Source: Candidatus Uhrbacteria bacterium
GTDB lineage: Bacteria; Patescibacteriota; Patescibacteriia; UBA9934
Length of the DNA stretch: 64,000 bases
Reading direction: 5' to 3'
Assembly: GCA_963822405.1 (NCBI GenBank)
Contig: CAWGHH010000002.1
Location: 266,766-330,765 of the forward strand
Positions 2,729 through 59,439 of the stretch are shown here, piece after piece; position 1 is the first letter of the stretch; each line of letters starts with the position of its first letter. The translations under genes and the position numbers were made by a program. The notes under the pieces are model-generated. The model worked only from the letters and a program-made list of their open reading frames with translations, had not been told where the DNA came from and did not search any database.

Positions 2729-2869
2729 ACCCCCTCTAGTTGAGAAGGCCTACAATGAGGTTACAATAGGCGGACTAACTGGGCAACCCGGTGGCTCTAA
2801 ACGAAAAAGCCCCCAGTACGGACGTATCCGTACAAGGGCCTCTTTCATAGTGATGGTAGGATACCATAC

Positions 2870-2985
2870 AGTTTTGTCATTGCGAGGGATCTCCGTAGCT
2901 TCGAGCGAAGGAGATGCCCGAAGCAACCTCACGAGATTGCTTCGACTCAAACGATTACGTTTGGTCTCGCAAAGACTGAAATACT
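2870..2985 (+). repeat. Structured interspersed repeat, copy A (cloverleaf-like, about 110 nt)
   Basis: gtcattgcgagggatctccgtagcttcgagcgaaggagatgcccgaagcaacctcacgagattgcttcgac...tggtctcgcaaagac. Near-identical to 14676-14783 except the third hairpin. Terminal inverted repeat gtcattgcgag / ctcgcaaagac. Ends 17 nt before the uvrD start. Confidence 0.6.
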
Positions 2986-3001
2986 AATCACCAGCAATTG
3001 T

Positions 3002-5932
3002 ATGTCTGATCTTCTCGAAGGCCTGAACCCAGAACAACTCGCGGCCGTGACCCATGGCGAAGGTCCGCTCATGATTATTGCGGGGGCGGGAACGGGGAAG
3101 ACAAAGGTGGTGACCACGCGCATTGCGTGGTTGATTGACCAGAAACTCGCCGAGCCGAATGACATTCTCGCGCTGACGTTTACTGACAAGGCAGCGAATG
3201 AAATGGAGGAACGAGTCGACCGTCTTTTGCCGATGGGTTATCTCGATCTCAACATTTCCACCTTTCACTCTTTTTGCGAAAAGGTTTTGCGTGAACATGG
3301 AATTCATATTGGTATTCCGTCGGACTTCAAGTTGTATACCGAGGTTGATTGTTGGTTGCTCATGCGTCGCAACCTTGATAGATTCGAGCTCGACTATTTC
3401 AAACCGCGTGGTTCGCCAACAAAATTCTTGCGACAACTACTTTCTCATTTTTCGAAGTGTAAGGACGAGGGTATCTCCCCCGAGAAATATTCTATTGCAG
3501 TTGAAGAACTCGCAAAGGTTTTGTCGAAGGGTCCAGCAATGCTCGACGAGGACAAGCTCGAAATACAAAAATGGCAGGAACTATCCGGCGCTTACGCCAT
3601 GTACGAGACACTCTTATCCGAACAGCACGCTATCGATTTCGGCGGCTTGCTTCTATTAGCGCTTGAGTTATTCAGAACTCGACCAAATGTCCTAGCGGAA
3701 TATCTCGCGCGATTCAAGTACGTTATTGTCGACGAGTTTCAAGACACAAACAGCATTCAATATGCGCTCGTCAAATTGTTAACTGGTCCAAAGCGCAATG
3801 TTACGGTCGTGGGCGACGACGATCAAGCAATCTACAAGTTTCGTGGCGCCGCCCTCGCCAATATTTTAGAGTTTAGAACTGACTACCCGGATACAGCGCG
3901 TGTTGTGCTTACCAGAAACTATAGAAGTGGCGCGACAATTCTCGACGCTGCACATAAACTTATTCAGACGAATAATCCTCATCGTTTAGAAGCGAGCGAA
4001 GGTTTATCAAAAAAACTACAATCGCAAATTGAACATGCAGGTCTCGTCCATCACCTTCACTGCGCAACAGCTGTCGAGGAAGTCGAATCCGTCATCAACG
4101 AAATTATTGCTAAGCACGAAAACGGGGAAGGGGACTGGAACGATTTTGTAATTCTCGCACGCTCGAATGATGCAGCTGATCCGTTTCTCGAAGCCCTTGA
4201 GCGAGTTGGCGTTCCGTATCACTTCGTGGCCATGTCTGGTTTGTACACGAAACCGATTATCCTAGACTCGATGGCTTACATGCGCGTAGTGTACGAGCCG
4301 TATAACTCGCCAGCGATGTATCGAATCCTGAGTCATCCTCGTCTCGGCCTCACCGAGTCCGATCTTTCAGCGTTAATGCAATATGTGCGCAAGAAAAATG
4401 GCGCAGCAATTATTGACGGCATGCGTTCGCTCGGTCAGGAAGCTGGAGTGTCACTCGATGGGTCAACTCGACTAAACGAGATTGTTCGAATTATCGAAAA
4501 CCTACGGGACAAAGCAAAGCGTTTGCCAGTCACCGAGCTGTTCGTTTCGGTTCTCAAAGATACCGGTCTACTCGGCGACATGCGAATCATGCCTGAAGCT
4601 GATCAGCAGGAAGTATTCCGACACCTAGAAGGTTTCCTGGCTCGCCTGAAGCGCTACGTTGTCGCCAGTCCGGACAATAAGCTGTTACCCGGCTTCTTAG
4701 AGGAGTTCGACGCTGAACGCGAGGCAGGGGAGGCTGGTGGTTTGAAGGCTGACACCGAGGAGGGGCCCGATGTCGTCAATGTCATGACTATTCACGCCGC
4801 GAAGGGCCTCGAGTTCAAATATGTGTTTGTGGTGAACATGATCGAGCAACGTTTCCCCTCAGTTTCGCGCTCCGACCAACTTCCTCTCCCCCCAACGCTC
4901 GTCCGCAAAGTCGATGCCGCTCTGGACGATCACGTCGCCGAGGAACGTCGTCTGTTCTATGTGGCCATGACTCGCGCTAAGCAGGGTTTGTATTTATGTT
5001 CGGCGGAAGATTACGGCGGTACTCGTAAGCGAAAACCGTCGAGGTTCCTCGCCGAGTTAGGTTACGAAGTGCAACCGACCGAAAAGAAAAAGAAAATGAG
5101 CACGGACGATATTCTCGATGAACGAGGCAAGATTGTAACCAGTTCCGGCGAGGCCGATATCAAATTGCCGACAAAATTCTCTTTCTCTCAAGTCGCCGCT
5201 TTCGGTTCATGTCCTCTCCAGTACAAGTACGCTCATATTCTCAAAATCCCGACGTTTGGCCGTCATCAGTTCAGCTTCGGCCAAAGCATGCACTTAACCC
5301 TTGAAAAGTTCGTCAAAGAAATGCTCCCCGCAGAATCAACAACCCTTTCTAGCCCTTTATTGCCCTTTCGAACCTTTCCTTCACTCCGTCAGCTTCTCGA
5401 TATGTACGCTGCATCATTCATCGACGAATGGTACCCAGATTCGAAGACTCGTGAACAGTATCGTCAGCAGGGCGTCGATTCTCTCACAGAGTTCCATCGT
5501 AAAGTGGTCGAGAATCAACCTAAGCCGATTATCCTTGAGGCCGGCTTCACTCTAAAGATCGGCGACATCTTGATGAAAGGACGTATCGACAGAATCGACG
5601 CGGTCGAAGGTGGCGTTGAGATTATCGACTACAAGACCGGCCGGTTCAAAGAAAAGCTGGATTGGGATGACCGTCGCCAGCTGATCTTGTACGCTCTGGC
5701 CGCTGAGCAATGTTTCAATCCGCCCCTCGTCGTCAAAGCGCTAACGTACTATTATGTTGAGACAAACGAAACGATGAGTTTTGCCCCAACTGACAAGGAC
5801 AAGGAAAAACTACTAGACGAGATCAAAGAAACCGTCGGCGCAATTAGAACGAGTACGTTCGAGCCGAAACCGGGACCATTTACTTGTAAGTATTGTGACT
5901 TTAAGGACATTTGCCCGTTTTCGCAACAATAA
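3002..5932 (+). CDS. UvrD/PcrA-family helicase fused to a C-terminal PD-(D/E)XK (RecB/Cas4/AddB-like) Fe-S nuclease domain
   Basis: 976 aa. Walker A AGAGTGKT, VDEFQDTN, VGDDDQAIYKFRGA and TRNYRSG helicase motifs. C-terminal nuclease core DRIDAVEGGVEIIDYKTG plus Cys cluster GSCPLQY...CKYCDFKDICPF. Confidence 0.85.
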   Translation: MSDLLEGLNPEQLAAVTHGEGPLMIIAGAGTGKTKVVTTRIAWLIDQKLAEPNDILALTFTDKAANEMEERVDRLLPMGYLDLNISTFHSFCEKVLREHGIHIGIPSDFKLYTEVDCWLLMRRNLDRFELDYFKPRGSPTKFLRQLLSHFSKCKDEGISPEKYSIAVEELAKVLSKGPAMLDEDKLEIQKWQELSGAYAMYETLLSEQHAIDFGGLLLLALELFRTRPNVLAEYLARFKYVIVDEFQDTNSIQYALVKLLTGPKRNVTVVGDDDQAIYKFRGAALANILEFRTDYPDTARVVLTRNYRSGATILDAAHKLIQTNNPHRLEASEGLSKKLQSQIEHAGLVHHLHCATAVEEVESVINEIIAKHENGEGDWNDFVILARSNDAADPFLEALERVGVPYHFVAMSGLYTKPIILDSMAYMRVVYEPYNSPAMYRILSHPRLGLTESDLSALMQYVRKKNGAAIIDGMRSLGQEAGVSLDGSTRLNEIVRIIENLRDKAKRLPVTELFVSVLKDTGLLGDMRIMPEADQQEVFRHLEGFLARLKRYVVASPDNKLLPGFLEEFDAEREAGEAGGLKADTEEGPDVVNVMTIHAAKGLEFKYVFVVNMIEQRFPSVSRSDQLPLPPTLVRKVDAALDDHVAEERRLFYVAMTRAKQGLYLCSAEDYGGTRKRKPSRFLAELGYEVQPTEKKKKMSTDDILDERGKIVTSSGEADIKLPTKFSFSQVAAFGSCPLQYKYAHILKIPTFGRHQFSFGQSMHLTLEKFVKEMLPAESTTLSSPLLPFRTFPSLRQLLDMYAASFIDEWYPDSKTREQYRQQGVDSLTEFHRKVVENQPKPIILEAGFTLKIGDILMKGRIDRIDAVEGGVEIIDYKTGRFKEKLDWDDRRQLILYALAAEQCFNPPLVVKALTYYYVETNETMSFAPTDKDKEKLLDEIKETVGAIRTSTFEPKPGPFTCKYCDFKDICPFSQQ

Positions 5933-25371: not shown

Positions 25372-26515
25372 CTATTTTATCACACCACTCCCAACCGCCT
25401 CTTTAACATTCCTGAACCCATCTCTTCGTAGTAGCTCAGCGAGTCCTTTATTAATTTCGCCGATTACCTGCGGAACCTTGGAAAATCATCCCAGTGATCA
25501 GCTGGACGAGTGAGGCGCCTCGACAAATCTTCGCGTAGGCGTCTTCGGCCGTGAAGATTCCGCCGGTGCCGATGATGACGAATCGGTTGCCGGTCGTTTT
25601 ATATAAATGCTCAATCAGGGCGAGGGACGCATCAGAAGTTGGCTTGCCGCTGATTCCGCCTTTAGTGATGCCGGCAATTTCTGTCTGATCGATTTCCGGA
25701 CGATCGCGCTTCTTAGTTAGGTTCGACAAAATGATTCCGTGTACGCGATGTCGTTTGCAGACGTCGACCAAACCGTCCAGCTCCCCCGTCAGCAAATCCA
25801 CCGGCATCTTGATGAAGATTGGTTTACTAGTAGCAATCTTGTCGAGTTCAGTCATTAACAGTTCGAGTCGTTCAGGAGTTGTGAAAGGCTCTCCCCCGCA
25901 CGTGTTCGGACAACTAATGTTGATCGTAAAAAATTGCCCGATGTCGACAAACGCTCTGAACGCCTTGGCGTAGTCGTTGATGCCGTCCTGCAGTTCAACG
26001 GTCGACGCGTCATTGGTCTTCGCTACACTTATCCCAATCGGCAGCGGGAAGGTCTTACCCTTAAGCCTCGACGAGATTGCTTCTGCTCCATCGTTCTTCA
26101 GTCCGTAGTAGACGACTAGCCCTTTACTCTTTGGTAACCGCCATAATCGAGGTCTCGGATTCCCCGCGCACGCCTCCCCCGTGATAGAGCCAACTTCCTC
26201 AAAGCCAAAACCTACCGCCGCCATCACGTTTGGCAACTGCGCGTTCTTATCGAACCCCGCCGACAAGCCAACTGGATTCGCAAAATGTATTCCAAGAATG
26301 TTCTGTTCAAGGATCGCGTCGTCATAACGGTAATTCAAGCGCGCGAGCCCTCGCAATGGTGCAACCGAGCCAATTACTCGACCAGCCAACGTAAACGCAT
26401 CATGGACATCTTCTGGGTCGCGTTTAAAAATAATCGGCTTTAATATATTTTGATAAGCCCAGGCCTGAAGTTTTGTGGCGAACATATTACAAACGACCGA
26501 GATCGAACTTTCCAT
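25372..26515 (-). pseudogene. pyrD: Dihydroorotate dehydrogenase (quinone, class 2) with apparent 1-nt frameshift near the 3' end
   Basis: Class 2 DHODH motifs GFGFEEVGSIT, NISCPNT, IGTGGI. The annotated frame ends prematurely (...ITGMIFQGSAGNRRN, stop at 25451). Shifting 1 nt at about 25472 restores a canonical C-terminus GPQVIGEINKGLAELLRRDGFRNVKEAVGSGVIK ending at 25372. Confidence 0.7.
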
Positions 26516-27227
26516 TCACTGTACACTTCTCTTTTATTTGTTTGGCAAGACTCTGAATATCGTCCTCAAACAAACTTGAATATTCTTCTTCCTCAAATAA
26601 CTTCATCACAATCCCAATCATTTCTTGGTAGAAATTCGCGTCACCTGTAAGTCTCTCCCAAAAATCCTGACCAACATAGATTGGAATATGTGGTTGTTGA
26701 CCGATTGTCTCGTCGTGAATCTTCTTGTAATGCCCGCTAATCTGGTCGAGTGTTCCGTACGTAATCCCAATTGCAAAAGTCGGGATAGTCGCCGCTCTAT
26801 TCTGAAGCAATAATCTATAGGCCGTCTTCATCTCATCCAATATCGGCTTCACATCACCTGCATTGATCGTATTTGGACCAGACTTCAGCTGCATGACTAT
26901 CCTTCCACCCTCTTTCTTGTTCTCAAATTCAATATCCATTCCAGCTGTGCTCGAAGCTTGCGCACCAAGCTGTTGAGTGCAGAGTCTCTGCATCATGTCC
27001 CCAAAAGTTGTGCTAACCGACGTCCCGAATACTCGAGGATACAAGAGAGCCTTCGCGACATTCTCTGGGGTGCACTCCCCCAAAATACCGCTAGACAACG
27101 CAGCTATAGCGAATGGATTTACGTTAAACTTTGATAGCTTGTGCCCACTTTCTAATTTTGCTCGAAGTACATCAGCGAATTCAATTTTGAAATACTCACG
27201 AATCACCTTTTCGGTTTGTTTATCCAT
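26487..27227 (-). CDS. Putative type II restriction endonuclease (PD-(D/E)XK-like), partner of the adjacent m5C methyltransferase
   Basis: 246 aa. Divergently arranged against an m5C MTase, sharing an 82-bp promoter region. Candidate nuclease motif GMDIEFEN...VMQLKSG (D...QxK). Family not recognised; the call rests on context. Confidence 0.45.
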   Translation of the reverse strand: MDKQTEKVIREYFKIEFADVLRAKLESGHKLSKFNVNPFAIAALSSGILGECTPENVAKALLYPRVFGTSVSTTFGDMMQRLCTQQLGAQASSTAGMDIEFENKKEGGRIVMQLKSGPNTINAGDVKPILDEMKTAYRLLLQNRAATIPTFAIGITYGTLDQISGHYKKIHDETIGQQPHIPIYVGQDFWERLTGDANFYQEMIGIVMKLFEEEEYSSLFEDDIQSLAKQIKEKCTVNGKFDLGRL

Positions 27228-27273
27228 AATGGAAAAGCATAGACCTTTGGTACATTTTTGTCACTTATGAACA

Positions 27274-27302
27274 AGTAACCACTGCATAAGGCAATGGTTA
27301 CT
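27274..27302. promoter_or_regulatory. Near-perfect 29-bp palindrome in the R/M divergent promoter, candidate operator for the MTase N-terminal HTH
   Basis: AGTAACCACTGC-ataag-GCAATGGTTACT (11/12 arm match). Sits directly upstream of TATACT and the methyltransferase ATG at 27310. Confidence 0.55.
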
Positions 27303-27309
27303 ATATACT

Positions 27310-28548
27310 ATGTCTGCTATGCCAAAACTTCTTTCGGTTATCGAAGCTTCACTCCGGATCGGCGTCTCCTCTGACACTATTCGTCGCTGGGACAAAAAAG
27401 GATTAATCAAAGCCCAACGCTCCCCGCTTAATCATCGTCTATTCGATTTCGATGAAATCATGCGTTTGCATAACAAAATATCAGGCACAAGTAGTGGAAA
27501 CAACTACAAAGTACTTAGAACAAACAAGAAATCGGGATATACGGCTATTGAACTATTCGCCGGAGCAGGCGGAACTGCCCTAGGATTCGACAACGCTGGG
27601 ATCGACCATACTCTCCTCACCGATTGGGACAAAGACTCGACCGACACGTTAAAATTCAACAAACCAAATTGGAACGTTGTTCGTGATGACGTGCGAAACA
27701 TCGACTTTTCAAAAAAAGACGCAGATATAGTAGAAGGCGGCTTCCCTTGTCAATCCTTCAGCTTCGCCGGCAAGAAACTCGGCTTCAGCGATATACGAGG
27801 AACAATGTTTTTCGAATTCGCACGTTGCCTTAAAGAAGTCCAACCAAAAATTGCCATGGGTGAAAATGTTCGTGGCCTCCTCGCGCACGAAGACGGACGA
27901 ACCCTCAAAACGATCATCGGCATCATGAAGGACTTAGGCTATAACGTCGCTTACAAAATTCTCCGCGCTCAATATCTCGATGTTCCGCAAAAACGCGAGC
28001 GCCTCATCATTATCGGCATTCGCAAGGATCTCGATCTCCCGATTCTCTTCCCGCGAGAAAGAGATTACACAATCTCAATGAAGGAAGCGTTGGCCGAATG
28101 TCCACTTTCAGACGGACAATCATATCCAGATAAAAAACGAGCGGTCATGGAATTGATACCAGCGGGTGGGTATTGGAAAGACTTGCCAGTACCGATGCAA
28201 AAAAAATACATGGGAGCTAGCTATTACATGGGCGGTGGAAAAACCGGCATGGCTCGTCGCCTCTCTTGGGATGAACCGAGCCTCACGCTTACCTGCGCGC
28301 CAGCACAAAAACAAACCGAGCGTTGTCATCCGAGCGAGACTCGACCCCTCACGGTTCGCGAGTACGCCCGTATTCAAACCTTTCCCGATTCTTGGGACTT
28401 CTCAGGCTCGACCACATCCCAATATAAGCAGATAGGAAATGCTGTCCCCGTAAACCTCGGATTCCATATCGGCACATGTCTAAAAGCATCCCTCAATGGC
28501 AATGCCGACGAGAAAACCATGGAACTTGCTGAACCAATCGAAAACTAA
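27310..28548 (+). CDS. DNA (cytosine-5)-methyltransferase with N-terminal MerR-type HTH domain
   Basis: 412 aa. N-terminal LLSVIEASLRIGVSSDTIRRWDKKGLIKAQR (MerR-like HTH). m5C motifs I ELFAGAGG, IV GFPCQSFSFAGK, VI ENVRGL, VIII QRRERLIIIG. Confidence 0.9.
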   Translation: MSAMPKLLSVIEASLRIGVSSDTIRRWDKKGLIKAQRSPLNHRLFDFDEIMRLHNKISGTSSGNNYKVLRTNKKSGYTAIELFAGAGGTALGFDNAGIDHTLLTDWDKDSTDTLKFNKPNWNVVRDDVRNIDFSKKDADIVEGGFPCQSFSFAGKKLGFSDIRGTMFFEFARCLKEVQPKIAMGENVRGLLAHEDGRTLKTIIGIMKDLGYNVAYKILRAQYLDVPQKRERLIIIGIRKDLDLPILFPRERDYTISMKEALAECPLSDGQSYPDKKRAVMELIPAGGYWKDLPVPMQKKYMGASYYMGGGKTGMARRLSWDEPSLTLTCAPAQKQTERCHPSETRPLTVREYARIQTFPDSWDFSGSTTSQYKQIGNAVPVNLGFHIGTCLKASLNGNADEKTMELAEPIEN

Positions 28549-32346: not shown

Positions 32347-33105
32347 ATGCTAGTCTTTGCCGGCTTTGTTCCTAACTCCCCCTTGCTCATGCCAGGGATC
32401 AATACCTCGCGTTTGAGCGAGGCTGAAGAAACCGTGCATGCACTCCATGAACTAGGTGATGACCTGTATGCCGCGCATCCAGACACCATAATCCTCTTGT
32501 CACATGGCACGGCAGTGTACGAGGAAGCTTTTTCCGTAAATGTTGCTGATCCGTACACTACGGATCTTTCCGCGGTCGGCGACCTTGATTATCGCAAAGA
32601 ATATCACCCAGATTTTGGATTCATTGATGCTCTCCAGCGTTTCGCCCGCAAGAATTCTATTCCCATGTCTTTGTCGACAGATGAAAAACTCACTTTTCCG
32701 TCAGCCGTTCCGCTCCACTATCTAACTGCTCATCTAAAAAATGTTCGAGTTGTCCCAGTTGCTCCATGTTCACTTGATGGCAAGGCACACTTTTCTTTCG
32801 GTAACACGCTTCAACACATCATCATGCAAAGTGACAAGCGCGTGGCCATCATCGCTTCTGGAGACATGGGGCATGCAGAAAATGCCGGTGACTTTGACGA
32901 AAAATTACTGACCTTCTTCAAAGAACGAAACAGCTCTGGCCTTCTTCAAGTAGACCCAGACCTAATTACTCAAGCACAAGACACATCGTACCGACAGATT
33001 TGTATGCTTTTTGGCGCTCTAGACGGAATACATGTAACTCCAGAAATTCTTAACTACGCAAAACCTTTCGGCGTCGGCTACGCTGTAGTGAATTTTGTCC
33101 TGTGA
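32347..33105 (+). CDS. MEMO1 / AmmeMemoRadiSam system protein B family
   Basis: 252 aa. Pattern consistent with MEMO1/extradiol-dioxygenase-B-like fold (LLSHGTAVYEE..., IIASGDMGH). Confidence 0.55.
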   Translation: MLVFAGFVPNSPLLMPGINTSRLSEAEETVHALHELGDDLYAAHPDTIILLSHGTAVYEEAFSVNVADPYTTDLSAVGDLDYRKEYHPDFGFIDALQRFARKNSIPMSLSTDEKLTFPSAVPLHYLTAHLKNVRVVPVAPCSLDGKAHFSFGNTLQHIIMQSDKRVAIIASGDMGHAENAGDFDEKLLTFFKERNSSGLLQVDPDLITQAQDTSYRQICMLFGALDGIHVTPEILNYAKPFGVGYAVVNFVL

Positions 33106-34898
33106 TCGCTGAAGTGATTCCTAGCCTAAAACTCCCCCGCCGTTTTTCGTTTTTTGATTATCAAATTCCTGACTCAATGGAAGTTGGCATTGGCGACCTG
33201 GTCAATGTTCTGTTTCATGGTCGAGAAATTGTCGGCGTTGTCCGTGGTCTAAAACTAACGTCAGAGGCGCGGAAACTCGCGCCCGTCCGCTCCGTCGCCT
33301 TGCGCGAATGGTGTAGTCTTCGTGACGTCGAGCGGCTCGAAACAATTTCCTCGGCCATCGCCCAATCACCCTCAAGCCTACTACACACAATCGGTCCGTC
33401 AGGAATGGCTCCCCCTCCACGTAGTGGAGGGGGTAAGGGGGGCGGGCAAGGTCCGATCACCGTGAAACGCTCCGACGTCTCTCACGTCACCGAAATTCTC
33501 AAAGACACCGCTCCCGTCCAAGCCCTCATCGGCGACTTCGCATTAGGCGTGGTTCTCGTCCACGCTCTCGCAAAGTCAGCGACCGATCAAGTCCTCGTCC
33601 TCGTCCCAACTGAGCGCGACGTCGAACTCGTCGGTGCAGGAGTCATGTTACATGGGCACACAAAGCCACGAGAGAGAACATCGATTGCATCAGCCTGGCG
33701 AAAGGGCGAAATCAAACTCCTCGTCTCTACCCGTCTCGCATCCCTTCTCCCCGCTAAAAAAATCTCCGCTATCGTCGTCCTTGACTCCGGTAATGACGAA
33801 CACGCCAGCACCCGCCGTAACCCCCGTTTCGACGCCCGCGAAGCCGCAAAGCTTTTAGCCGCCCAACACAAAGCAAGGCTATTCTTCATTGACCCCTTGC
33901 CCCGACTAGAAGAACTGGTAGGGACGGATGACATACTCCCCCTTCTTACCAAAAAGGGGGCCGGGGGGAAGTCTGACGGCGGCCATCCGCCGCCTCAGCT
34001 CATCTCCCTCAAGCACCCTCTCGAACGCTCCGGCATCGATCTGGTTTCTACGTCTCTCCTCGACAGCATCGAACGCTCTTTACTTGAGCGTAAAAAAGTG
34101 CTACTTTTTTTGAACCGAAAAGGCGTTGCCAAGCGTCTACAGTGCGGTGCCTGCGGACATATTCCACTCTGTGGAACCTGTGGCAATGTGCCGAGCGTCC
34201 GCAAGGATGACTTAGTCTGCGCTAGCTGTGGCACGGAAATGTGGTTGCCTGAAACATGCCCGTCATGCGGTAAGGCCAAGATTCATTTTCGCGGTATCGG
34301 TGGCGCAAAGGTTGCCGATGACTTGCAAACAAAGTTTCCAAACGCAAAAGTCGGCGTTATTGAAAAAGGCAAAGTAACTAACAGCGACGCTGACATTCTC
34401 CTAGTCACTGAATACTTCTGGAGTTCTTTTCAAAAACCGTTTCTAAAGATGAACTTCGGCGTAGTGGCTGATTTAGCCGCAGATCTTGGTCTGCAAAGCG
34501 ATGATTTCCGAAGTGCGGAACATATTGCCAGAAAGCTATCTCGTCTTATACTATTTGCTAAGCGTGAAAACGCTGAGTGCATTCTCCAAACCTGGCTGCC
34601 AGATATCATCTCGCCAATGTTAGATCTGCCTAGGTTCATAGCGTCCGAACGCGAGCTCCGCGAACGCTACAAACTCCCGCCTTTCTCCTCCCGTTATATT
34701 CTCGAAGGCGCCACACTCGACGAACTACCAGAATCAATCAAACAGCTCGCTCGCCAACATGGCGATGCAATCGAAATCAGATTCCCCTCGGCGTACAGAC
34801 AAGGCGGCGCCTTGTCCCTACACCTACTTCCCGACTCCATCAAAATCACCCCCGACACTTCTTATGCCCCCAATGACTGTCCTCCACAATCCGAATAA
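33102..34898 (+). CDS. priA: Primosomal protein N' (PriA) homologue with degenerate Walker A
   Basis: 598 aa. N-terminal 3'BD-like strand (DLVNVLFHGREIVGVVRG). PriA Cys-rich zinc module CGACGHIPLCGTCGNVPS...CASCGTEM...CPSCGK. No GxxxxGK[ST] where the helicase Walker A is expected (ALIGDFALGVVLVHALAKSA). DEEH-like motif is NDEH. Confidence 0.8.
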   Translation: MIAEVIPSLKLPRRFSFFDYQIPDSMEVGIGDLVNVLFHGREIVGVVRGLKLTSEARKLAPVRSVALREWCSLRDVERLETISSAIAQSPSSLLHTIGPSGMAPPPRSGGGKGGGQGPITVKRSDVSHVTEILKDTAPVQALIGDFALGVVLVHALAKSATDQVLVLVPTERDVELVGAGVMLHGHTKPRERTSIASAWRKGEIKLLVSTRLASLLPAKKISAIVVLDSGNDEHASTRRNPRFDAREAAKLLAAQHKARLFFIDPLPRLEELVGTDDILPLLTKKGAGGKSDGGHPPPQLISLKHPLERSGIDLVSTSLLDSIERSLLERKKVLLFLNRKGVAKRLQCGACGHIPLCGTCGNVPSVRKDDLVCASCGTEMWLPETCPSCGKAKIHFRGIGGAKVADDLQTKFPNAKVGVIEKGKVTNSDADILLVTEYFWSSFQKPFLKMNFGVVADLAADLGLQSDDFRSAEHIARKLSRLILFAKRENAECILQTWLPDIISPMLDLPRFIASERELRERYKLPPFSSRYILEGATLDELPESIKQLARQHGDAIEIRFPSAYRQGGALSLHLLPDSIKITPDTSYAPNDCPPQSE

Positions 34899-35344
34899 AG
34901 AACTCCGCGTCGTTTCTGAAGCCGTGGATATTTCGCGTTTGGGTACCAAGGAATTCAAAAAACTTATCAGTGACCTAAAGATGACCATGGAGGAAGAAAA
35001 CGGCGTCGGCATCGCCGCTCCGCAGGTGGGCGTACATGACCGCGTGATCATTGCGGAGACAAAAGATCGGACCAACGGCCTTTATCAATCCAGAGATCAC
35101 TGAGCGGGCCTTTAAACTCATTGACGGAGAGGAAGGCTGTCTATCAGTGCCGGGCATTTGGGGCATTGTAAAGCGCCACCGATCAGTCACCGTCAAAGCA
35201 CTGCTAGATGACGGCAAGCAGGTCACAGTTAAGGCTACAGGATTACTCGCCATTATTTTCCAACATGAAATCGACCACCTTGACGGCATCCTTTTTATTG
35301 ACCGAGCCACAGAGTTGCGAAAGACCGGAAAAAGCCGGATCTAA
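34864..35344 (+). pseudogene. def: Peptide deformylase with apparent +1 frameshift
   Basis: Frame A: MPPMTVLHNPNKELR...GVGIAAPQVGVHDRVIIAETKD (motif 1), stop at 35103. Frame B from about 35071: PTAFINPEI...EGCLSVPGI (motif 2)...HEIDHLDG (motif 3), stop at 35344. Removing one base in cggaccaacgg restores ...ETKDRPTAFINPEI. Confidence 0.75.
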
Positions 35345-36209
35345 ACTCCGCGTCGCCTTCTTTGGCACGCCGGAATTCGCCTCACGGTTCCTCTCGGGTC
35401 TAATCGATGACTCGTATTTCAAGATTGTCGGCGTCGTTACTCAACCGGATGAACCAGTTGGCCGAAAAAAGATTTTGACTGCGCCTCCAGTAAAAACACT
35501 CGCGCTTGAGAAATGTATTCCCGTTTATCAGCCTTCTAAATTAAAAGACGAATTTTTCTTAAACGCAATTCAAGGACTTAAGGCCGATATTTTTGTTATT
35601 GTCGCTTATGGTCGAATCCTGCCACAGGCACTCCTCGACATGCCACGCTTGGGTTGTATAAATGTACATCCGTCAATGTTGCCGAAGTACCGCGGTCCGT
35701 CGCCTATGCAAGCCGCCATCGCAGCGGGTGACGAACAGACAGCCGTGACAATCATGAAAATCGACGCTCAGATGGACAGCGGTCCCATCCTCGCCCAAGA
35801 AACAATCGACCTCGTTAATGACGAAACCGTCGCCACACTCACCGAAAAAGTTGTAACTCTCGGAGATCCGCTTCTTCGAAACACTCTTAAGGCATTTCAC
35901 GAAGGCAACATCATCCCCCGCGAACAGGATCACTCAGCCGCCACTTTCTGCAAAATCCTCACGCGCGATGACGGCAGAATTGATTTGTCGAGCGACCCCA
36001 AGGTACTCGACCAAAAAATCCGCGCCTATAATCCCTGGCCAGGAACCTGGACAATGATTCAGCATGACGGCAAAGAATTGCGCGTTAAAATTTTGAAAGC
36101 AAAACTAGTCGAGGGGAAACTCGAAATCCTAGAAGTCCAGCCAGAAGGCGGAAAACCAATGACAACCGCAGATTTTACACGCGGATACGGAAAAGCATTG
36201 ACTTTCTAG
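35298..36209 (+). CDS. fmt: Methionyl-tRNA formyltransferase
   Basis: LRVAFFGTPEFA, NVHPSMLPKYRGPSPMQ, C-terminal domain. No ATG near the N-terminus; candidate TTG at 35298 overlaps the def end. Start is uncertain (the track ORF begins at 35208). Confidence 0.85.
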   Translation: MTEPQSCERPEKAGSKLRVAFFGTPEFASRFLSGLIDDSYFKIVGVVTQPDEPVGRKKILTAPPVKTLALEKCIPVYQPSKLKDEFFLNAIQGLKADIFVIVAYGRILPQALLDMPRLGCINVHPSMLPKYRGPSPMQAAIAAGDEQTAVTIMKIDAQMDSGPILAQETIDLVNDETVATLTEKVVTLGDPLLRNTLKAFHEGNIIPREQDHSAATFCKILTRDDGRIDLSSDPKVLDQKIRAYNPWPGTWTMIQHDGKELRVKILKAKLVEGKLEILEVQPEGGKPMTTADFTRGYGKALTF

Positions 36210-46249: not shown

Positions 46250-46251
46250 AC

Positions 46252-47001: not shown

Positions 47002-47031
47002 ACATCGTATATAAGCGGTAAGCTTTAAGGC

Positions 47032-47655: not shown

Positions 47656-47664
47656 AGGTAGTAA

Positions 47665-48135: not shown

Positions 48136-48141
48136 AGGAGA

Positions 48142-48528: not shown

Positions 48529-48530
48529 AG

Positions 48531-48644
48531 TTAGCCTTGGCGCTGCTTATGCTTAGGAATTTTGCAAACTACGCGAACGCGGCCTTCCCGACGGATGACC
48601 TTGCAATCGCGACAGATTTTCTTAACAGATGAACGTACTTTCAT
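48531..48644 (-). CDS. rpmJ: 50S ribosomal protein L36
   Basis: Hand-translated: [37 protein letters not shown] (37 aa). Below the track cutoff. Confidence 0.85.
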
Positions 48645-48721
48645 AAAATTTCCCTTTATGTTACGCAAAATCATCCGGAAAACTCCAAGGATGATTCTGT
48701 AGAAGCTAGAGATGCCGTTCG

Positions 48722-48937
48722 CTAGAAGCGGAACGTTATTCGAGCCTTGGTGAGATCATAGGGGCTGATCTCACACTTGACGTCATCACCGGGCATTACC
48801 CGGATGCGGTTCTTACGGAGTTTGCCCGCAAGGTGACCAATGACTTCCATGTCTGTTTCGAGTTTGATGCGGAAAGCTCCACCAGGAAGCGATTCCAACA
48901 CCTCACCACGCATTTCTAGAAAATCTTTTTCGGCCAT
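48722..48937 (-). CDS. infA: Translation initiation factor IF-1
   Basis: [71 protein letters not shown] (72 aa). The track ORF is extended upstream. Confidence 0.9.
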
Positions 48938-49028
48938 AGCCGTATTAATATACCAGAGTGCGCTTGGATTAAACAAGAAACCTCTACACAGAAATGCGGG
49001 GGAAGTGTACTCGTCCACCGCGGGAGTG

Positions 49029-50006: not shown

Positions 50007-50598
50007 TCGGAGTAGCCGATTTCACACCAACATCCTTCGTGCCGGCGTTGAAAATATACGAGTAAGGTCGCACAGCTTCTGTGAAGGCCGAATGATCGAT
50101 ATCCGTGCCCAACGCTGCATACTTCTGCAAAACAGCCGAAAGACCATGCGCTGCATTCACCGTAAGGAGATAAGGCTCGCTTAATTTGTCATCTTCCAAA
50201 AGAGCAATAAGTTGATTGAACTTTGTGTCCTGTTTCTTGATGAACGCGTAGTCCTCAGCAAATGTTGGTGCACTCTCCGCATCTCCTCTCATGAAAAAAC
50301 CATTAAACATGCCCTCGATATCGACAATCAAACACATCGCATCATTACTCACGAAGGCTGATGGATATGCATAATTTGAAGTGTCAGCCTGATTGTTCTT
50401 TGCGATTCCAGCATTAAGCGCTGCGATGACGGATGCGGAAAGTGGCTTGTTAGATCCCAACTCACGAGCAATGTCTGCACTCGTAACAGCATGCGGAATC
50501 TGACTCGCCACAAGTAATGACCCGAAGGCTAGACCAACAACCGAACCAAGCAACATGCCCGGAATAAAGTGGGCGAGGAAATGAGATTTTGATTCCAT
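49963..50598 (-). CDS. Signal-anchored extracytoplasmic protein, 211 aa (paralogous N-terminus with next gene)
   Basis: MESKSHFLAHFIPGMLLGSVVGLAFGSLLVASQIPH, then a non-repetitive domain. N-terminal 36 aa is near-identical to that of 50600-51412. Confidence 0.5.
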   Translation of the reverse strand: MESKSHFLAHFIPGMLLGSVVGLAFGSLLVASQIPHAVTSADIARELGSNKPLSASVIAALNAGIAKNNQADTSNYAYPSAFVSNDAMCLIVDIEGMFNGFFMRGDAESAPTFAEDYAFIKKQDTKFNQLIALLEDDKLSEPYLLTVNAAHGLSAVLQKYAALGTDIDHSAFTEAVRPYSYIFNAGTKDVGVKSATPSGGKVPEFQCPELE

Positions 50599-50599
50599 A

Positions 50600-51412
50600 T
50601 TAATTCATCATGCTAGCCTCAACGTCCACGGTCTCATTGTCCGTCCAACCGTTCATCATCCAGGCCTCGCCAAAAGAAGTGTGAATAGGGCCGTCGCCTT
50701 TATAGCCACCAAATGTCCTGGTCTTCATGTCGAAGATCCACAAAATACCTCGTTCTGACATGGCGTTACCAAGAGCAGCTACAACGGCGATCTTAGAACC
50801 GTCAGGTGAGAACTTAGCGTCGAACTGCGTGTAATGCTGATCCGGGAGAGCGTATGTTTGAACATCGTTCGCGTCATCAATCGCTCGAATCTGCAACGAG
50901 ATCGTCGGTCCGATATCTTGGAAAAACTGTGCCAAGTATTTTTCGTCCGGGGAAATGTCGAGCCCCTGGCGAATACCCCCCTGTCCGAAAGTCGGATCAA
51001 GCAGTCGATCAACCTTACCAGTACAAGTATTCACTCGAATCATGTCATATGTCACTGGATACAAAATGTAACCGCCAAGGCCATCTGGATTAAAATCAAG
51101 ATAGGCATTTATAGAAGCAGAATTAACTTGATAAAAGTTCCCAGCATTAAAGAGACCGTTCGGAAAATCTACTTCAGAAATTTTCTTGTCCTTCAAATAT
51201 ATACCAAAGTTGTGTTCGTCGAGAGCCTTCCAGGAAAGATCCTTAAACGAACCAACACAATCACTCGTCACAGCACCACCTTGCGCCAACTGCTTGGTTG
51301 CAGAATGTGGAATCTGACTCGCTACAAGCAACGAACCAAACGCGAGACCAACAACTGAACCGAGAAGAATGCCGGGAATAAAGTGAACGAGAAAATGGGA
51401 TTTGGATTGCAT
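50600..51412 (-). CDS. Signal-anchored protein with WD40-like (TolB-type) beta-propeller repeats
   Basis: MQSKSHFLVHFIPGILLGSVVGLAFGSLLVASQIPH anchor. Repeats DISPDEKYLAQFF and FSPDGSKIAVVAALG typical of TolB-like propellers. Confidence 0.55.
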   Translation of the reverse strand: MQSKSHFLVHFIPGILLGSVVGLAFGSLLVASQIPHSATKQLAQGGAVTSDCVGSFKDLSWKALDEHNFGIYLKDKKISEVDFPNGLFNAGNFYQVNSASINAYLDFNPDGLGGYILYPVTYDMIRVNTCTGKVDRLLDPTFGQGGIRQGLDISPDEKYLAQFFQDIGPTISLQIRAIDDANDVQTYALPDQHYTQFDAKFSPDGSKIAVVAALGNAMSERGILWIFDMKTRTFGGYKGDGPIHTSFGEAWMMNGWTDNETVDVEASMMN

Positions 51413-51500
51413 ATACTAGGAAGTATACACGATCCAATATCCCATTTTTAGGCCTTTCGCCTACGCTCAAGGACTTTATGTGCACCATCTCATTCAAATA

Positions 51501-53277
51501 CTATCCGAGTATCGCCTTAATCCGTCTCACGCCCGAAGACACCGCCTCTTCTTTTTGGATCTTGAATCCGCCAAGCTCGCCGGTATGAGTGACGTGCGGG
51601 CCGCCGCAGATTTCTTTAGAATAGTCGCCGACAGAATAGACGTTGATCTTGCCACCTATGTTCGCATACTTATCTTCGAACAAACCAATTGCCCCGCTGG
51701 CTTTCGCTTCCTCAACGGTTAGTTGCTCGGCTTTCACTGGCATGTCTTTCTTGATCTGTTCGTTCACTATGGCCTCGACCTTCGCAATTTCTTCCGGCGT
51801 CATCTTGGTGTTATGCGAAAAATCGAAACGCAAACGTTCGGCAGTGATGTTACTGCCCTTTTGTTCAACATGAGGGCCGAGGACGTCGCGAAGTGCTTGA
51901 TGCAAAATATGCGTCGCGGTGTGTAGGCGAGTAGTTTCAACAGAGTGATCAGCGAGTCCGCCGGCAAATTTCTTTTCAGCGCCTTGTCGAGATAGATCCT
52001 GGTGCTTCTTGAATTCAGCGGCGAATGCCTCGCGGTCGACTTCTTGGCCCTGCTCATGTGCGAGCTCGTGAGTTACTTCGAGCGGGAAACCGTAAGATTG
52101 ATAAAGATTAAACGCGTCTTCACCAGAAATAGCTTTGTTCTTTTCAAACATCTTCTGGAATTCTCGAAGGCCCTGCGCAAGTGTCTTCTCGAATTTCATT
52201 GCCTCGGTGCTCAGACCGGAAACGATCAGCTCGCGCTTCTCGACCAACATTGGATACGCCTCGCCGAGTGAAGCGACGATCTCGTCGACAACTGGACCGA
52301 TCAATTTCTGCGTGTCGATTCCGAGTTTCTTGGCGTGACGGATTGCTCGACGGATTAATCGACGGAGAATATATCCCTGGTCTTTATTAGAAGGTTCGAC
52401 GCCATCCATGAACATGATAGACGCGGCGCGAAGATGGTCAGCAATAATGCGCATTGACTTCATAGTCTCTGGCGCAGCCGCATATTCGAAACCGGATAAT
52501 TCCTCAAGCTTCTTCAAAATGTTCGTGAACAGCTCAGTCTCATACACGTTCGCGCGATGCTGGAGAGCGACGATCGTACGCTCCATGCCCATGCCAGTAT
52601 CCACGCTACCATGTTCAAGCGGCATCAAAGTGCCATCTTCTTGTTTATTGAATTGCATGAACACGTTATTCCAAATTTCCATCCAACGCTTGTCCTTTGG
52701 ATCATAAATAGCCGGTGGCTCCTCAGAACTCGTCCAATAAAAAATTTCCGTGTCTGGTCCGCACTGGTCCAGTCTTCCCCGCCGGTCCCCACCAGTTGTC
52801 TTCTTTTCCGAGCCTCGCGATCCGGTCGGCCGACACACCAAGACGAATCCAATGATCGTATGCTTCTTGATCGAACGGTGTATTCGCGTCTCCCTCGAAC
52901 ACCGTGAACGACAAATGTGTAAGAGGAATATTCAACCAATCTTTACTCGTCAAAAATTCAAAAGACCATTCTATAGATTCTTTCTTAAAATAATCGCCAA
53001 GGGACCAGTTACCCAACATGGTAAAAAATGTGAGGTGCGTGTTGTCGCCCACGTCATCAATGTCGCCGGTTCTAATGCAGCGTTGATAATCGACTAGTCG
53101 CTTCCCCGCTGGATGCGGCTCGCCCAAAAGATACGGCACAAGCGGATGCATACCCGCGGTCGTAAACAGAACAGTCGGATCATTTACCGGCACAACGGAA
53201 GCCGATGGAATTTCGACATGATTCTTTGATTTGAAGAACTCGACGTATTTCTTTCGGAGGTCGTTGGCGGTTATCAT
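51501..53277 (-). pseudogene. alaS: Alanine--tRNA ligase, split into two ORFs by an apparent 1-nt frameshift
   Basis: N-terminal ORF from [15 protein letters not shown], ...[26 protein letters not shown]...[12 protein letters not shown]-terminal ORF 51501-52841 resumes GPDTEIFYW...editing domain (HTATHILH, CGGPHV). Removing a g at about 52763 gives the canonical [11 protein letters not shown]. Confidence 0.8.
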
Positions 53278-53362
53278 AGATGGGAAAATGGTAACGTATT
53301 TGAGAAACTTTCGCAATAAAACATAAGCCGCCGGGGAATACCCGACGGCACATACGAAGTGC

Positions 53363-53548
53363 TCACCATCCGAACCGCTCGACGACCTTTCCAACCAACC
53401 AAGATCCCAACAGGGCGACACCAATGATGATCGGAAAAGCCACACACATGACACCGATGTCAGTCCAAGTAGTTGGACCAGAAGCGTCCTCGCCCCGACC
53501 AATGAGGTCAGGAAATGCATTCGCAACCGAGACTAAAAAGAACAACAT
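53363..53548 (-). CDS. Small membrane protein, 61 aa
   Basis: Track ORF with two hydrophobic segments. SD-like GGAGGTG 3 nt upstream of the ATG on the minus strand. Confidence 0.35.
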
Positions 53549-53584
53549 TCACACCTCCGCGCCAGAGGGTAACAGAATACAAAA

Positions 53585-55207
53585 TTATGTACCAGCTGGA
53601 CCCATGTCCCCAACTTCGGCCGGCTGGGCGGCTTTGAGGAATTTTCTTTGTAAGCCAGCCGTGATGCTTCGTAGCTCGGGGCTCTTCAAGAAATAGGCCG
53701 CTAACAAGTAGACGCCTCCACCAACCAAACTCGCCACTGAAAATTGCAAAAAGACATTCGCAAAAGTATCAAGCGTGATGTAACGCACAATCGCGTACTT
53801 TGCACCTTGAGTAGCAAAGGCTGAAAGAATACCGGAGAGCGAAAAGACAAAAACAGAATAGAGAATCTTCTTTTCATCAAGTCCGCCAATTTTGTGATGA
53901 AGAAATACCCAGAGAAAAGCCGTCTGGATCATAGCCGCACCAGTGAAAGCAATGGCCAGACCGAATAACCCGTAAGCGTGCGAAAGTGGAAAAGCAACTG
54001 CCACCGCTAACGCTCCACCAAATAGTGCAATGATAAACGGCGTCAAAGTGTCTTCAAGCGCGTAATACATTCTGACCAGAATAAAATTTGCCGCTTGTGC
54101 AAAAAAACTGATCGCAAAAATGGCGAGCGTATCTGCAATTAACACCGTCGACGTCCAATCCAAACCATCTGCGCCGTAGACCACACGCACTAACTGCGCT
54201 CGCAAAAGCAAAAATAGTACAGTTGCTGGAATCATGTAAAACATTACCTGGCGCATGGTGAGAGAAAATGAAGCGCGCATACCGGCTATGTCATTAACTG
54301 CGGCGCGTTCACAAAAAGTTGGATAGGCGGCAATAGCGTAAGAAACTGCCACAATACCAATCGGGACAAAGTTCAAAGTGTAAGCAAGATTAAAATCTCG
54401 AACAGCGCCATCGGCAATAGTTGTGGCAATCACGCTCATGAGCAAGAACTCGACCTGATTCACCGCCAAACCAAGAACCCGCGGAACCGTCTGTTTGGCC
54501 GTCAGCACCAAATCTGGATCTCGAAGTTTCAAGTATGGCTGGTAACGGTAACCAACTGAAATTGCGCCAACAAGCTGGACGAGCATGTGTAAAAATGAAC
54601 CAAGCACTACGCCCCAAGCCAAACCAATCGGACCAGTGATTGGCACAATGAACAAGGCACCGAGAATGATACCGGCGTTATAAACAATTGGCGCAAAGGC
54701 CGGAAGAAAAAACCTTTTAGTTCCTTGAAGAATCGAACCAAAAACAATCGACGCTGCAAAAAACAATTGACCCAAGAAAATAATTCGCGTCATCTGCGCC
54801 ACCGCCGCCTGTTTTTCAGGTGACCAAGTTGGGGCGAGAGCCGGCGCAATCCACGGAGCGAACGCAATAACAAAACCAGAAATGACAATGAAAATTAATA
54901 GAACCAAGTGAAGAACATTATTCGTATACTTCCAAGCACGCGCCTTATCATCACTAGCCCAAGCCTTAGTGAACACCGGAATGAAACTTGCAGAAATTGC
55001 CCCGACAACTAGCAGCTGAAACAGCAAATCTGGCAAGCGAAAAGACTGATAATAAACGTCTAGCACATTGGCCGATTGCCCGTTGAATGCCCCGATCAGC
55101 ACACGATCGCGAATAAGACCCGCCACGCGAGACAACAGAGACATTGCTCCTACAATAAAAGCAGCGGAAGCTACAGTAGATGACGCACTAAACAATTTCC
55201 TGATCAT
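53585..55207 (-). CDS. murJ: Lipid II flippase MurJ (MviN)
   Basis: 540 aa, 14 TM. MOP-family pattern with conserved Arg/Asp in TM1-2 region ([11 protein letters not shown]). Confidence 0.85.
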
Positions 55208-56490
55208 ACCTCTTGTAGGCGACGAAGGCGGTAGATGTAGATAAGAAGAGCAAGCAAGAGCAAGACAAGCAGAGAAAGCACTAGATCAACGAGCGGGTTA
55301 CCAAGATGAAAGAACGAAATGTTAATCATCTGCGAATCAGTAAACATTTTACCGCCATCCGTAGCCACCGCCAGAGTCACTTTGTAATCACCAGAACGTG
55401 GGAATACATGAGTCACTTTGCTTTCAACACTAGTCGAACCATCACCAAAGTCCCAGCCGAATGCCCCAGCCACCTCGCCTTGTGGCTTAGCGTTAAACTC
55501 ATAAGTTCGCCAATCTATCTGTCTATAACTAAATCGAGCGTCTGGAGAAAGTTTGAGATTTCCCAAGGTAATTGGAGTGGCAGCGTCTTCAGTGGCGGAG
55601 TTAGGCGACACCAAATCCGTACCTAACACACCCGAAGAAATATCAGCCACTGCCAGATCAGTTCCGCCGTTATCCGGTGTGCTCGATTCAACCGGGTCAG
55701 CGCCTCCCTGCTCGTCAGTGATTCCGGCAACTACTGGAACAGGATTCTTTGCGGGAGTCGTCACGTGAGTTGGAGTTGGCCCGCCGGTCGAACTTCCACT
55801 AGACGATCCGTTCGAGCTTCCACCAGGAGCCACTGCCACAACAACCGGCGGCGGGTTAGTTGAACGTGTTGAATCAAGCGGAAAAGCATCGCTTCCGTCA
55901 GGTGAACCGTCACCATCAGTATCCGGATTAGTTGGCGAAGTTCCGTTCGCAATTTCAGTTGTATCAGGGGTGCCATCGTTGTCATCATCACTGTCACAAG
56001 CATTGCCGGCACCGTCATGATCAGTATCAAGCTGATCAGCGTTAGAAATATTTGGGCAATTATCTGTGTCATCAGCTATCCCGTCATGATCGCCATCAAT
56101 AATTGGCGTATAGAGCGGAGTCATAGCCTCATCATTAGCAGCTACTACATCCGCCGGATCTTGTCCCTGAATTCTCGCAAGAATATTAAACGGACTTTGC
56201 GGAACAATATAGTCCACAAAAACATCGTCACCGTTACCACCGGCCACAACCGAAACTATCTGGCTAGTGCCAACTAATTGACTACCTTGATAAAAAAATA
56301 CCTGAGCTGTCATGTCTACCTCGCCCTCATTTTTAATAGTGGCGTAGATACGGATGTGATCTCCGGCGTACAAAGTACTCTTTGAGAAGTGAATGCTCGA
56401 GGCCTTGATTGAAAGGTCAGGTGACGCAGCTAAAGCCGAAAACGGCAGAAGCGTCAGACACATGACGACAAGCGAAAGAAAATATCGCAT
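55204..56490 (-). CDS. Cell-surface protein: CARDB-like N-domain, thrombospondin type-3 Ca-binding repeats, PKD domain, C-terminal TM anchor
   Basis: Signal peptide. TSP3 repeats [41 protein letters not shown] motif WDFGDGSTS...[15 protein letters not shown]-terminal [18 protein letters not shown]. Confidence 0.7.
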
Positions 56491-56518
56491 AGTTGTATAT
56501 TTCCTTTATTGTAGCACG

Positions 56519-57238: not shown

Positions 57239-57257
57239 AGAATGGTTTTAAACTTTC

Positions 57258-58174: not shown

Positions 58175-58287
58175 GAGACATGCCTAGGCATGCAACCGTC
58201 ACCACGCGTCCGCGCGGCTATAGGCCCCGCGGACGCTTCCCTTTTAGATTGACTTTCCCAAAAAAATTAGCTATCCTCAGCAAATCT

Positions 58288-59439
58288 ATGAAATGTCCTA
58301 ATCCCGAACGTTGCGGCTCTTGTGGCTGGTCTCATATCTCCTACGAGAAACAGCTCAAGCAAAAGCTCTCTGATATCAACGGTTCTTTTGCCATTAAAAA
58401 ATTAGATTTGAAGGTCGAGGAAATCGCCGCCTCTCCTATCACCCATCACTACCGTAATCGAATGGATTTTGTAATTGATTGGCAGGGCAACGTCGGCCTG
58501 CGTGAAAAGGGCAAGTGGTGGAGCGTGATCGACAATCATCCTTGTTTCATTGCTGACCAAAAAATCGAAGACGCGTTTTTCATCACCCGCGACTGGGCAA
58601 AGAAATGTGGTCTATCGTTCTGCGACCGAAAAGCTAACACTGGGTTCTTGCGCTACGCCGTCATTCGTTCAACGACTCTCGGCGAAACCATGATCATCAT
58701 CGTCACCAGCGCACCAAAGGATGCGGACGAAGAAGCAGCCGCCAAAAAAGCGCTCGAGGAATTAACTGTCTTATCGAAAGCAACCACGGTGGTCTGGTCA
58801 ATCAACCACACCATTAGCGATGTATCGTTCGGCGACGAACTTAGAACCATCTCTGGTCCTGGTGTTATCGAGGAAACAATTGCCGGTTATCGCTACAAGA
58901 TCTCTCCAAACGCGTTCTTCCAAACCAACCCACACGGTGCGGCGCAATTATTGGATACTGTTCGCGAATACGCGACCAGTGGGTCGACAGAGACGTCGAC
59001 CCCTACATCGGAACAAACGTTATTGGATCTCTACTGCGGAACTGGGTTCTTCGCTGTTGCCCTGGCCGCCTCATTCAAGAAAACAATCGGCGTAGAAATG
59101 GTCAAGGAAGCGATCGTGGACGCTAAAGTCAACGCAGAATTGAACAATGCAATGGTCGAGTTTCACGACGTAAAAACCGAAGACTTCGACTGGATGAAAA
59201 TTGGTGCTGACGTTGTCATCCTTGATCCACCACGTGGTGGCATGGTGGACAAAGCCCTCCAGGATATAATTGCCGCCAAGCCCGAAACCATTGTCTACGT
59301 CTCCTGTAACTACAAAAACTTCGCCCGCGAAATGGTGATCCTGCAAAAGTACTACGACGTCGAAGCCATGCGAGCTATAGACATGTTCCCCCACACGCCA
59401 CATGTGGAGCTGGTAACTAAGCTTGTGCGTAAGGTCTAG
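58288..59439 (+). CDS. 23S rRNA (uracil-5)-methyltransferase RlmD/RumA family
   Basis: Start MKCPNPERCGSCGW (Fe-S Cys cluster). SAM motifs LLDLYCGTGFF and ILDPPRGG. Contains a repeat-derived SGSTETSTPTSEQ insert. Confidence 0.8.
   Translation: MKCPNPERCGSCGWSHISYEKQLKQKLSDINGSFAIKKLDLKVEEIAASPITHHYRNRMDFVIDWQGNVGLREKGKWWSVIDNHPCFIADQKIEDAFFITRDWAKKCGLSFCDRKANTGFLRYAVIRSTTLGETMIIIVTSAPKDADEEAAAKKALEELTVLSKATTVVWSINHTISDVSFGDELRTISGPGVIEETIAGYRYKISPNAFFQTNPHGAAQLLDTVREYATSGSTETSTPTSEQTLLDLYCGTGFFAVALAASFKKTIGVEMVKEAIVDAKVNAELNNAMVEFHDVKTEDFDWMKIGADVVILDPPRGGMVDKALQDIIAAKPETIVYVSCNYKNFAREMVILQKYYDVEAMRAIDMFPHTPHVELVTKLVRKV
58980..59011. repeat. GGGTCGAC-hairpin repeat, copy inside rlmD coding sequence
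   Basis: tgggtcgacagagacgtcgacccctacatcgg, versus tgggtcgacagaggcgtcgacccctactctg at 61040-61070 (28/31 identical). Internal 8-bp palindrome GGGTCGAC/GTCGACCC. Confidence 0.6.

Follow-up and report, generated by a model that had tools for sequence, protein, structure and literature searches.

The alanyl-tRNA synthetase gene (alaS) of this Candidatus Uhrbacteria genome is deposited in two pieces. Judging from its sequence, it is almost certainly an intact and functional gene in the organism, and its frameshift a one-base insertion error in the consensus. Two further genes, pyrD and def, are broken in the same way within the window (the whole 64,000-nucleotide stretch that we analysed). It is very likely that all three frameshifts are artefacts of sequencing or assembly, and we give a probability of roughly 0.8 to long-read errors linked to methylation. 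The three insertions coincide with GGWCC sites, and the window carries the genes of a PmeII-family restriction-modification (R-M) system; for this reason we regard methylation-induced long-read basecalling errors as the best explanation. The window has 48% GC, and the best homologues of its proteins are Patescibacteria/Uhrbacteria-like.

One alaS gene and one extra base

The features of the alaS locus are as follows.
51501..53277, minus strand: alaS, encoding a short 591-aa alanyl-tRNA synthetase (AlaRS) once repaired; read here as one gene with a single spurious base
52764, minus strand: the extra base in alaS (gene strand G, plus strand C), which separates CCA (Pro) from TGC (Cys) within TGPCGP
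52723..52841, minus strand: overlap of the 267-aa and 446-aa open reading frames (ORFs), the interval flagged in an earlier note on this DNA

In the ORF listing the deposited alaS is spread over two ORFs on the minus strand, one of 267 aa (52723..53526) and one of 446 aa (51501..52841), which overlap out of frame by 119 nt. The earlier note had attributed this split to a 1-nt frameshift, and both the ORF listing and the translation confirm it. The break that it placed at about 52763 is real, but the base concerned is 52764 and the extent of the two ORFs has to be trimmed. The true start is the ATG at 53277, and the upstream 83 codons of the 267-aa ORF are read-through from non-coding sequence. 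What remains of that ORF is 171 codons of AlaRS followed by 13 out-of-frame codons, and three-frame translation finds the correct continuation in the next frame past TGP. On the gene strand the DNA at the break reads ACT GGA CCA [G] TGC GGA CCA GAC; if the ancestral codon was CCG, the extra base might just as well be the A at 52765.

Deletion of base 52764, with translation from the ATG at 53277, gives a 591-aa AlaRS. In Pfam searches the tRNA-synt_2c domain (PF01411) then runs continuously over residues 7-440 (E 1e-137), and tRNA_SAD (PF07973) follows at residues 544-586 of the same polypeptide. The deposited pieces match tRNA-synt_2c profile positions 2-164 and 162-437, placing the cut at about position 163, and it is only after the deletion that the AlaRS domain architecture, PF01411 and then PF07973 in one chain, is seen. 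The repaired protein agrees in length and architecture with its closest homologues among the short bacterial AlaRS of the Patescibacteria type (∼590 aa), which are without C-Ala; the window's gene differs from this type by the spurious base alone.

Comparison with relatives singles out the same base. We aligned the alaS DNA of the window with that of five syntenic relatives (1777 columns, ∼79% nucleotide identity), and the sole gap column in the alignment is window base 52764, which is missing from all five. Each of the five reads ACTGG(T/C)CC(A/G)TGCGG(T/A)CC(A/G)GAC, encoding TGPCGPD, and the window carries this segment with one base added. Along its entire length (100%), the repaired AlaRS shares 92-93% identity with intact 591-aa proteins encoded on related metagenomic contigs. 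Against the closest relative, 93.8% of amino acids are identical ahead of the shift and 91.1% beyond it, so that neither half of the gene has decayed. A gene without function would not stay so conserved at 79% DNA identity, which argues against a pseudogene and also against a lineage-wide recoding site.

The listed AlaRS homologues are single chains of about 586-640 aa, except for two full-coverage entries of 566 and 573 aa and one fragment, P0073. This 393-aa alaS fragment, 100% identical to the window, comes from an NCBI/ENA contig of 352,527 bp. It corresponds to the C-terminal part of the gene as annotated in the deposit, and the frameshift is therefore present in the public assembly.

Could the cell itself read through the break? 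Programmed +1 ribosomal frameshifting, or transcriptional slippage, would restore full-length AlaRS, since a single +1 shift at CCA-G-UGC restores the frame and all three events in the window need +1. We nevertheless place this among the least probable readings. At the alaS shift there is no slippery run, in-frame stop, rare codon or homopolymer, and CCA-G-UGC is without re-pairing potential. The shift occurs in none of the five close relatives and in no listed full-length homologue, so it is not conserved, and the only thing that the three contexts have in common is GGWCC, a signature at the level of DNA. The marks of a prfB- or antizyme-type +1 frameshift (a slippery or hungry-codon site, stimulators and conservation) are thus not those of the window's alaS.

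We give equally little weight to a genuinely split enzyme. Nanoarchaeum equitans has a split, two-polypeptide AlaRS, and each of the two ORFs here bears part of the catalytic domain. Against this, the cut would interrupt the catalytic core within its conserved TGPCGP segment, and the downstream piece has no start codon where the two meet: its first ATG yields a 393-aa fragment that lacks 27 conserved residues. Moreover, an out-of-frame overlap of 119 nt is the pattern of a 1-nt indel, and the relatives are unsplit. Split aminoacyl-tRNA synthetases have independent starts and a split conserved within the lineage, and the window's alaS has neither.

Three insertions and a second assembly

Two more genes in the window are interrupted.
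25372..26515, minus strand: pyrD, in which one spurious base at 25474/25475 makes GGAACC (plus strand 25472..25477) out of GGACC
34873..35344, plus strand: def, where a spurious C has been added at 35068, adjoining GGACC on its 5' side

The earlier note had counted alaS, pyrD and def as each broken by a single-base indel, with none of the three in a long homopolymer. Both statements stand, and can be made more precise: all three events are one-base insertions, repair restores frame and Pfam match in each case, and none lies in a run of more than two identical bases. The break in pyrD is near the C-terminus (gene strand CAA GGT [T]CC GCA). The frame runs to ...LITGMIFQG and then shifts, and the continuation PQVIGEINKGLAELLRRDGFRNVKEAVG is in the next frame. 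Repaired pyrD encodes 380 aa and matches DHO_dh positions 2-291 of 291 in Pfam, against 2-277 for the unrepaired version; the truncated product in NCBI/ENA protein sets is 354 aa. In def the DNA at the break is GAT [C] GGA CCA ACG, and the repaired gene encodes a full-length deformylase covering profile positions 4-155 of 156.

Searches for additional split genes found none among about 60 further window ORFs by Pfam scans, and none by tblastn with the relatives' ORFs, which spanned ∼42-62 kb of the window. Overlapping ORF pairs lacking Pfam matches revealed no convincing further frameshift, and nor did GGWWCC strings outside the parts covered by the second assembly described below. The indel rate in the window is thus about one per 20 kb.

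A second assembly was available from Logan, in the form of k-mer contigs of the read run ERR12037365, which we found by exact-sequence look-up of window proteins. Several window proteins recur in these contigs, and P0073 and the truncated pyrD product occur in NCBI/ENA only. Seven Logan contigs were aligned, covering ∼45.5 kb of the window. They probably derive from the same or sibling reads, and are to be taken as an independent assembly rather than independent sequencing.
10135-14703, L017: 100% identical to the window
16557-25472, L014: 100% identical to the window
25475-29349, L011: 100% identical to the window
29320-35785, L013: one difference, the C at 35068 being absent
37541-42480, L015: 100% identical to the window
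42699-52764, L016: identical save at its very end
52765-59485, L012: differences at 53092, at 58733-58740 and at its alaS end

None of the three insertions is reproduced in these contigs. In L013, def is without the extra C and encodes an intact 156-aa deformylase. At the pyrD site L014 ends in ...CCTGCG and L011 begins (plus orientation) with GACCTTGG, the joint reading being CCTGCG and then GACCTTGG; the contigs meet end to end, lacking the k-1 overlap that is usual, and spell GGACC (..GGTC), not GGAACC. At the alaS site L012 ends in ..GGACCATG, with no extra base. This end, ...ACTGGACCATG, reads Pro-Cys in frame, and the un-inserted read evidence consists of the last two bases of L012 only. 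L016 starts at the same site with a third variant, GGTGCAGGACC. The Logan contigs therefore break exactly at the pyrD and alaS sites, with three variants at alaS, which indicates read-level heterogeneity and not a clean allele.

Besides the three insertions, window and Logan differ at only two places. At 53092, within alaS, L012 shows a synonymous C/T difference (GTC versus GTT, Val, in the context GTCGAT), which reflects either variation between strains or one more ambiguous pyrimidine call. At 58733-58740 there are two gaps and three mismatches between L012 and the window, and these split a trmA-like methyltransferase gene (58180..59439) in L012. Here the window's KDADEEAAAKKALEEL agrees with the relatives and the Logan version is the wrong one. 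Within the stretch that can be compared with Logan, then, the deposited sequence proves wrong solely at the three insertions. The garbled cluster in L012, together with the three variants at alaS, suggests error-prone long reads rather than Illumina data.

The sequence GCAGCCGCC in the 58733..58740 region holds two GCNGC strings, and this context may be a second error-prone, possibly modified, one in the reads.

These observations bear directly on whether the three genes are real pseudogenes, the products of genome decay or disabled alleles of a sub-population, perhaps arising at restriction sites. Such mutations would explain why the insertions are truly in the deposited record, with the 393-aa P0073 and the 354-aa pyrD product in NCBI/ENA, and the Logan breaks do show variant sequence in some reads at two of the sites. 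We find this highly improbable. Both alaS and def are normally indispensable, single-copy genes. A pseudogene is recognized by several disabling changes or by relaxed constraint, and alaS has a single indel: one gap in 1777 columns, no other defects, and amino-acid identity above 91% before as well as after the shift. Furthermore, the def insertion is missing from L013, the reads carry at least three alaS variants, as expected of noise rather than an allele, and no other gene is split among the ∼60 window ORFs scanned with Pfam.

The earlier note had offered two readings of the pattern, systematic consensus errors in the assembly or unusual biology. The first is upheld by the absence of the extra alaS base from five relatives, the full length of the repaired genes and the Logan contigs without insertions. 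The second is disfavoured by the conservation on both sides of the shift, the clean def in Logan and the multiple alaS variants. Independent data confirming all three indels, which the note had named as grounds for abandoning the consensus-error reading, did not emerge: Logan points the opposite way, and its run may consist of the assembly's own reads.

GGWCC sites and a PmeII-family system

What the three insertions share is their position. Each is no more than 1 nt from a GGWCC site (3/3). The corrected 64-kb window has 50 such sites, and the fraction of positions that near to one is 0.00625, which cubed gives a chance probability of ∼2.4e-7. In the corrected sequence, GGACC encloses the pyrD insertion, and another GGACC begins directly 3' of the one in def. 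At alaS a GGTCC lies 1 nt from the insertion, with a second GGTCC 5 nt further on. Two sets of sites also stand out among the ends of the Logan contigs.
52756..52760 and 52766..52770: two GGTCC (GGWCC) sites that flank the extra base in alaS; L012 and L016 end here
35781..35785: a GGTCC site at which L013 terminates; the window is correct here, and the site is a trouble spot at the read level

Altogether, 5 of the 14 Logan contig ends are at GGWCC sites. The ends at 14703, 16557, 37541, 42480, 42699 and 59485 have no GGWCC, and L011 and L013 overlap by exactly 30 nt (29320-29349), which marks a graph branch. At least 14 GGWCC sites are crossed by Logan contigs without trouble, and any effect of the motif therefore depends on the surrounding sequence; we found no longer common motif around the four troubled GGWCC sites. 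Base composition predicts ∼110 GGWCC and ∼102 GGSCC in the window, where 49 and 34 are observed; the corresponding Markov-model ratios of observed to expected are 0.71 and 0.58. This depletion of GGNCC is uninformative on restriction pressure because it is mild (0.58-0.71) and common to the relatives' loci.

An R-M system lies beside pyrD, in the same window and 25 kb from alaS.
26487..27227, minus strand: type II endonuclease of the EcoO109I/PmeII family (Pfam RE_EcoO109I, E 2.5e-24, with a weak RE_TdeIII match)
27310..28548, plus strand: C5 cytosine DNA methyltransferase with an N-terminal MerR-type HTH (Pfam DNA_methylase, E 4.5e-79)

The system (26487..28548) consists of a 246-aa endonuclease and a divergently encoded 409/412-aa methyltransferase, situated between pyrD and a PIN_8-domain gene. 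The methyltransferase matches TIGR00675 (dcm) with E 3e-74, and M.HaeIII in the PDB over its full length. Its family is widespread in Patescibacteria, and versions of the R-M system at ≥90% identity are found on a 20,976-bp JGI contig. Homologues of the endonuclease at 36-55% identity carry the NCBI name 'PmeII family type II restriction endonuclease'. The PmeII-family name derives from these endonuclease homologues alone, the names of the methyltransferase homologues being generic. In a phmmer search of the PDB with the endonuclease, the solved chains of EcoO109I and AvaII were not among the matches, and no NCBIfam model matched it.

The PmeII name points to a recognition site. Anton et al. 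found that Pseudomonas mendocina DNA carries m5C at GGWCC, matching the PmeII site (PMC8112702). AvaII (G^GWCC) and EcoO109I (RG^GNCCY) are related enzymes with a common GGNCC core (PMC7337904). The window's endonuclease resembles this PmeII/AvaII/EcoO109I group in its RE_EcoO109I domain, its PmeII-named homologues and the divergent C5 methyltransferase beside it, but at only 36-55% identity to PmeII-named proteins its site is predicted rather than established. Its specificity is probably GGWCC. On the strength of the PmeII-family naming of its homologues, the PmeII site and the m5C motif, the organism itself very probably methylates GGWCC with 5mC. The probable common cause at GGWCC and the encoded PmeII-family R-M system are additions to what the earlier note had proposed.

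How might a methylated motif lead to an extra base? The C5 methyltransferase of the R-M system would methylate GGWCC. In long reads of native DNA, most likely from Oxford Nanopore, 5-methylcytosine would perturb the signal over several bases around the motif, and reads would come into conflict at a purine/pyrimidine position beside or inside GGWCC. The assembler or polisher might then write the ambiguous position as two bases: A to AG in alaS, T to TC in def and G to GA in pyrD. Indeed, each inserted base is the transition partner of the neighbouring true base (AG in alaS, on the gene strand; TC in def; GA in pyrD), and from this pattern we infer that an ambiguous R/Y call was turned into two consensus bases. 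The missing homopolymer errors and the rate of about one indel per 20 kb fit a recent long-read chemistry used without short-read polishing.

Errors of a related kind are documented. Wick et al. (2019) traced ∼70% of the consensus errors in one Klebsiella nanopore assembly, with default models, to the 5mC motif CCWGG (PMC6591954). In R10.4.1 data, Lohde et al. (2024; PMC11610573) and Liu et al. (2024; PMC11610603) described purine/pyrimidine positions that are ambiguous, together with G-to-A and C-to-T errors that are strand-specific and persist after polishing. The window has much in common with these cases, in which errors gather at Dcm CCWGG or at R/Y positions. Its errors recur at one short palindrome, which a genome-encoded C5 methyltransferase probably modifies; they are not homopolymer-related and hit a subset of the motif copies; the read set is heterogeneous at the sites; and the wrong base is the transition partner. 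There is one difference. The methylation errors published for R10.4.1 are mainly substitutions (C to T, G to A) and not insertions (PMC11610573, PMC11610603), whereas those in the window are one-base insertions that cause frameshifts.

The same artefacts might owe nothing to methylation and stem from random polishing errors or strain mixtures, which we judge unlikely. Most GGWCC sites are free of error, as such an origin would predict. Moreover, the window-versus-Logan differences at 53092 and 58733-40 are not at GGWCC, and other error-prone or variable contexts must therefore exist. An origin of this kind, however, leaves the motif association unexplained: the probability that all three insertions fall within 1 nt of GGWCC by chance is ∼2e-7, and a 1000-fold correction for post hoc choice of the motif still leaves ∼2e-4. 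It also leaves aside the ends of Logan contigs at GGWCC (5/14), and the presence in the same window of a probable cognate, GGWCC-type R-M system with its C5 methyltransferase.

The motif association could also be accommodated if the insertions were real alleles carried by part of the population, with GGWCC sites acting as hotspots for one-base insertions. PmeII-type cleavage and repair, or 5mC-related damage, would create insertions even in essential genes, and the carriers would survive through community complementation or translational bypass. We give this very little credence.

Consequences and other features of the window

If the frameshifts are methylation-linked basecalling errors, as we favour, further errors of this kind at the motif are probable elsewhere in the 352-kb contig and in the genome at large. 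In this metagenome-assembled genome alaS, def and pyrD are not to be scored as pseudogenes or as absent functions, and the three genes need repair before any metabolic or essential-gene inference is drawn. The pattern is also of diagnostic use. Frameshifts clustered on one palindrome, beside a matching R-M system, flag methylation-induced errors and indicate the likely motif. The principle of motif-clustered errors is already published, and ours is not a new kind of finding.

Just upstream of alaS, on the minus strand, lies a 61-aa ORF (53363..53548) that has no Pfam match. Counterparts of 56-71 aa occupy the same position in the relatives and in the Logan contig, and its product looks like a small membrane protein. 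The window has one tRNA and no Rfam match.

A 976-aa ORF at 3002..5932 (plus strand) combines a UvrD-type helicase with a C-terminal PD-(D/E)XK/Cas4-like nuclease domain and is AddA/AddB-like. In the 1043-aa open frame 2801..5932, its matches cover residues 75-735 and 793-1039. Its exact product is absent from the contig index, in contrast to seven other window proteins that we looked up, all of them present. Apart from a 3'BD domain, a PriA-like protein of 598 aa (33102..34898, plus strand) gives only weak matches, to Helicase_C and a zinc ribbon. Its sequence has diverged strongly: the best relatives in genome_contigs are 23-43% identical, and the matches in metagenome_contigs are likewise distant. 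Finally, the minus-strand gene at 55204..56490 encodes a predicted surface protein of 428 aa with CARDB, thrombospondin type 3 and PKD domains; it is translationally coupled to murJ, an arrangement kept in all relatives.
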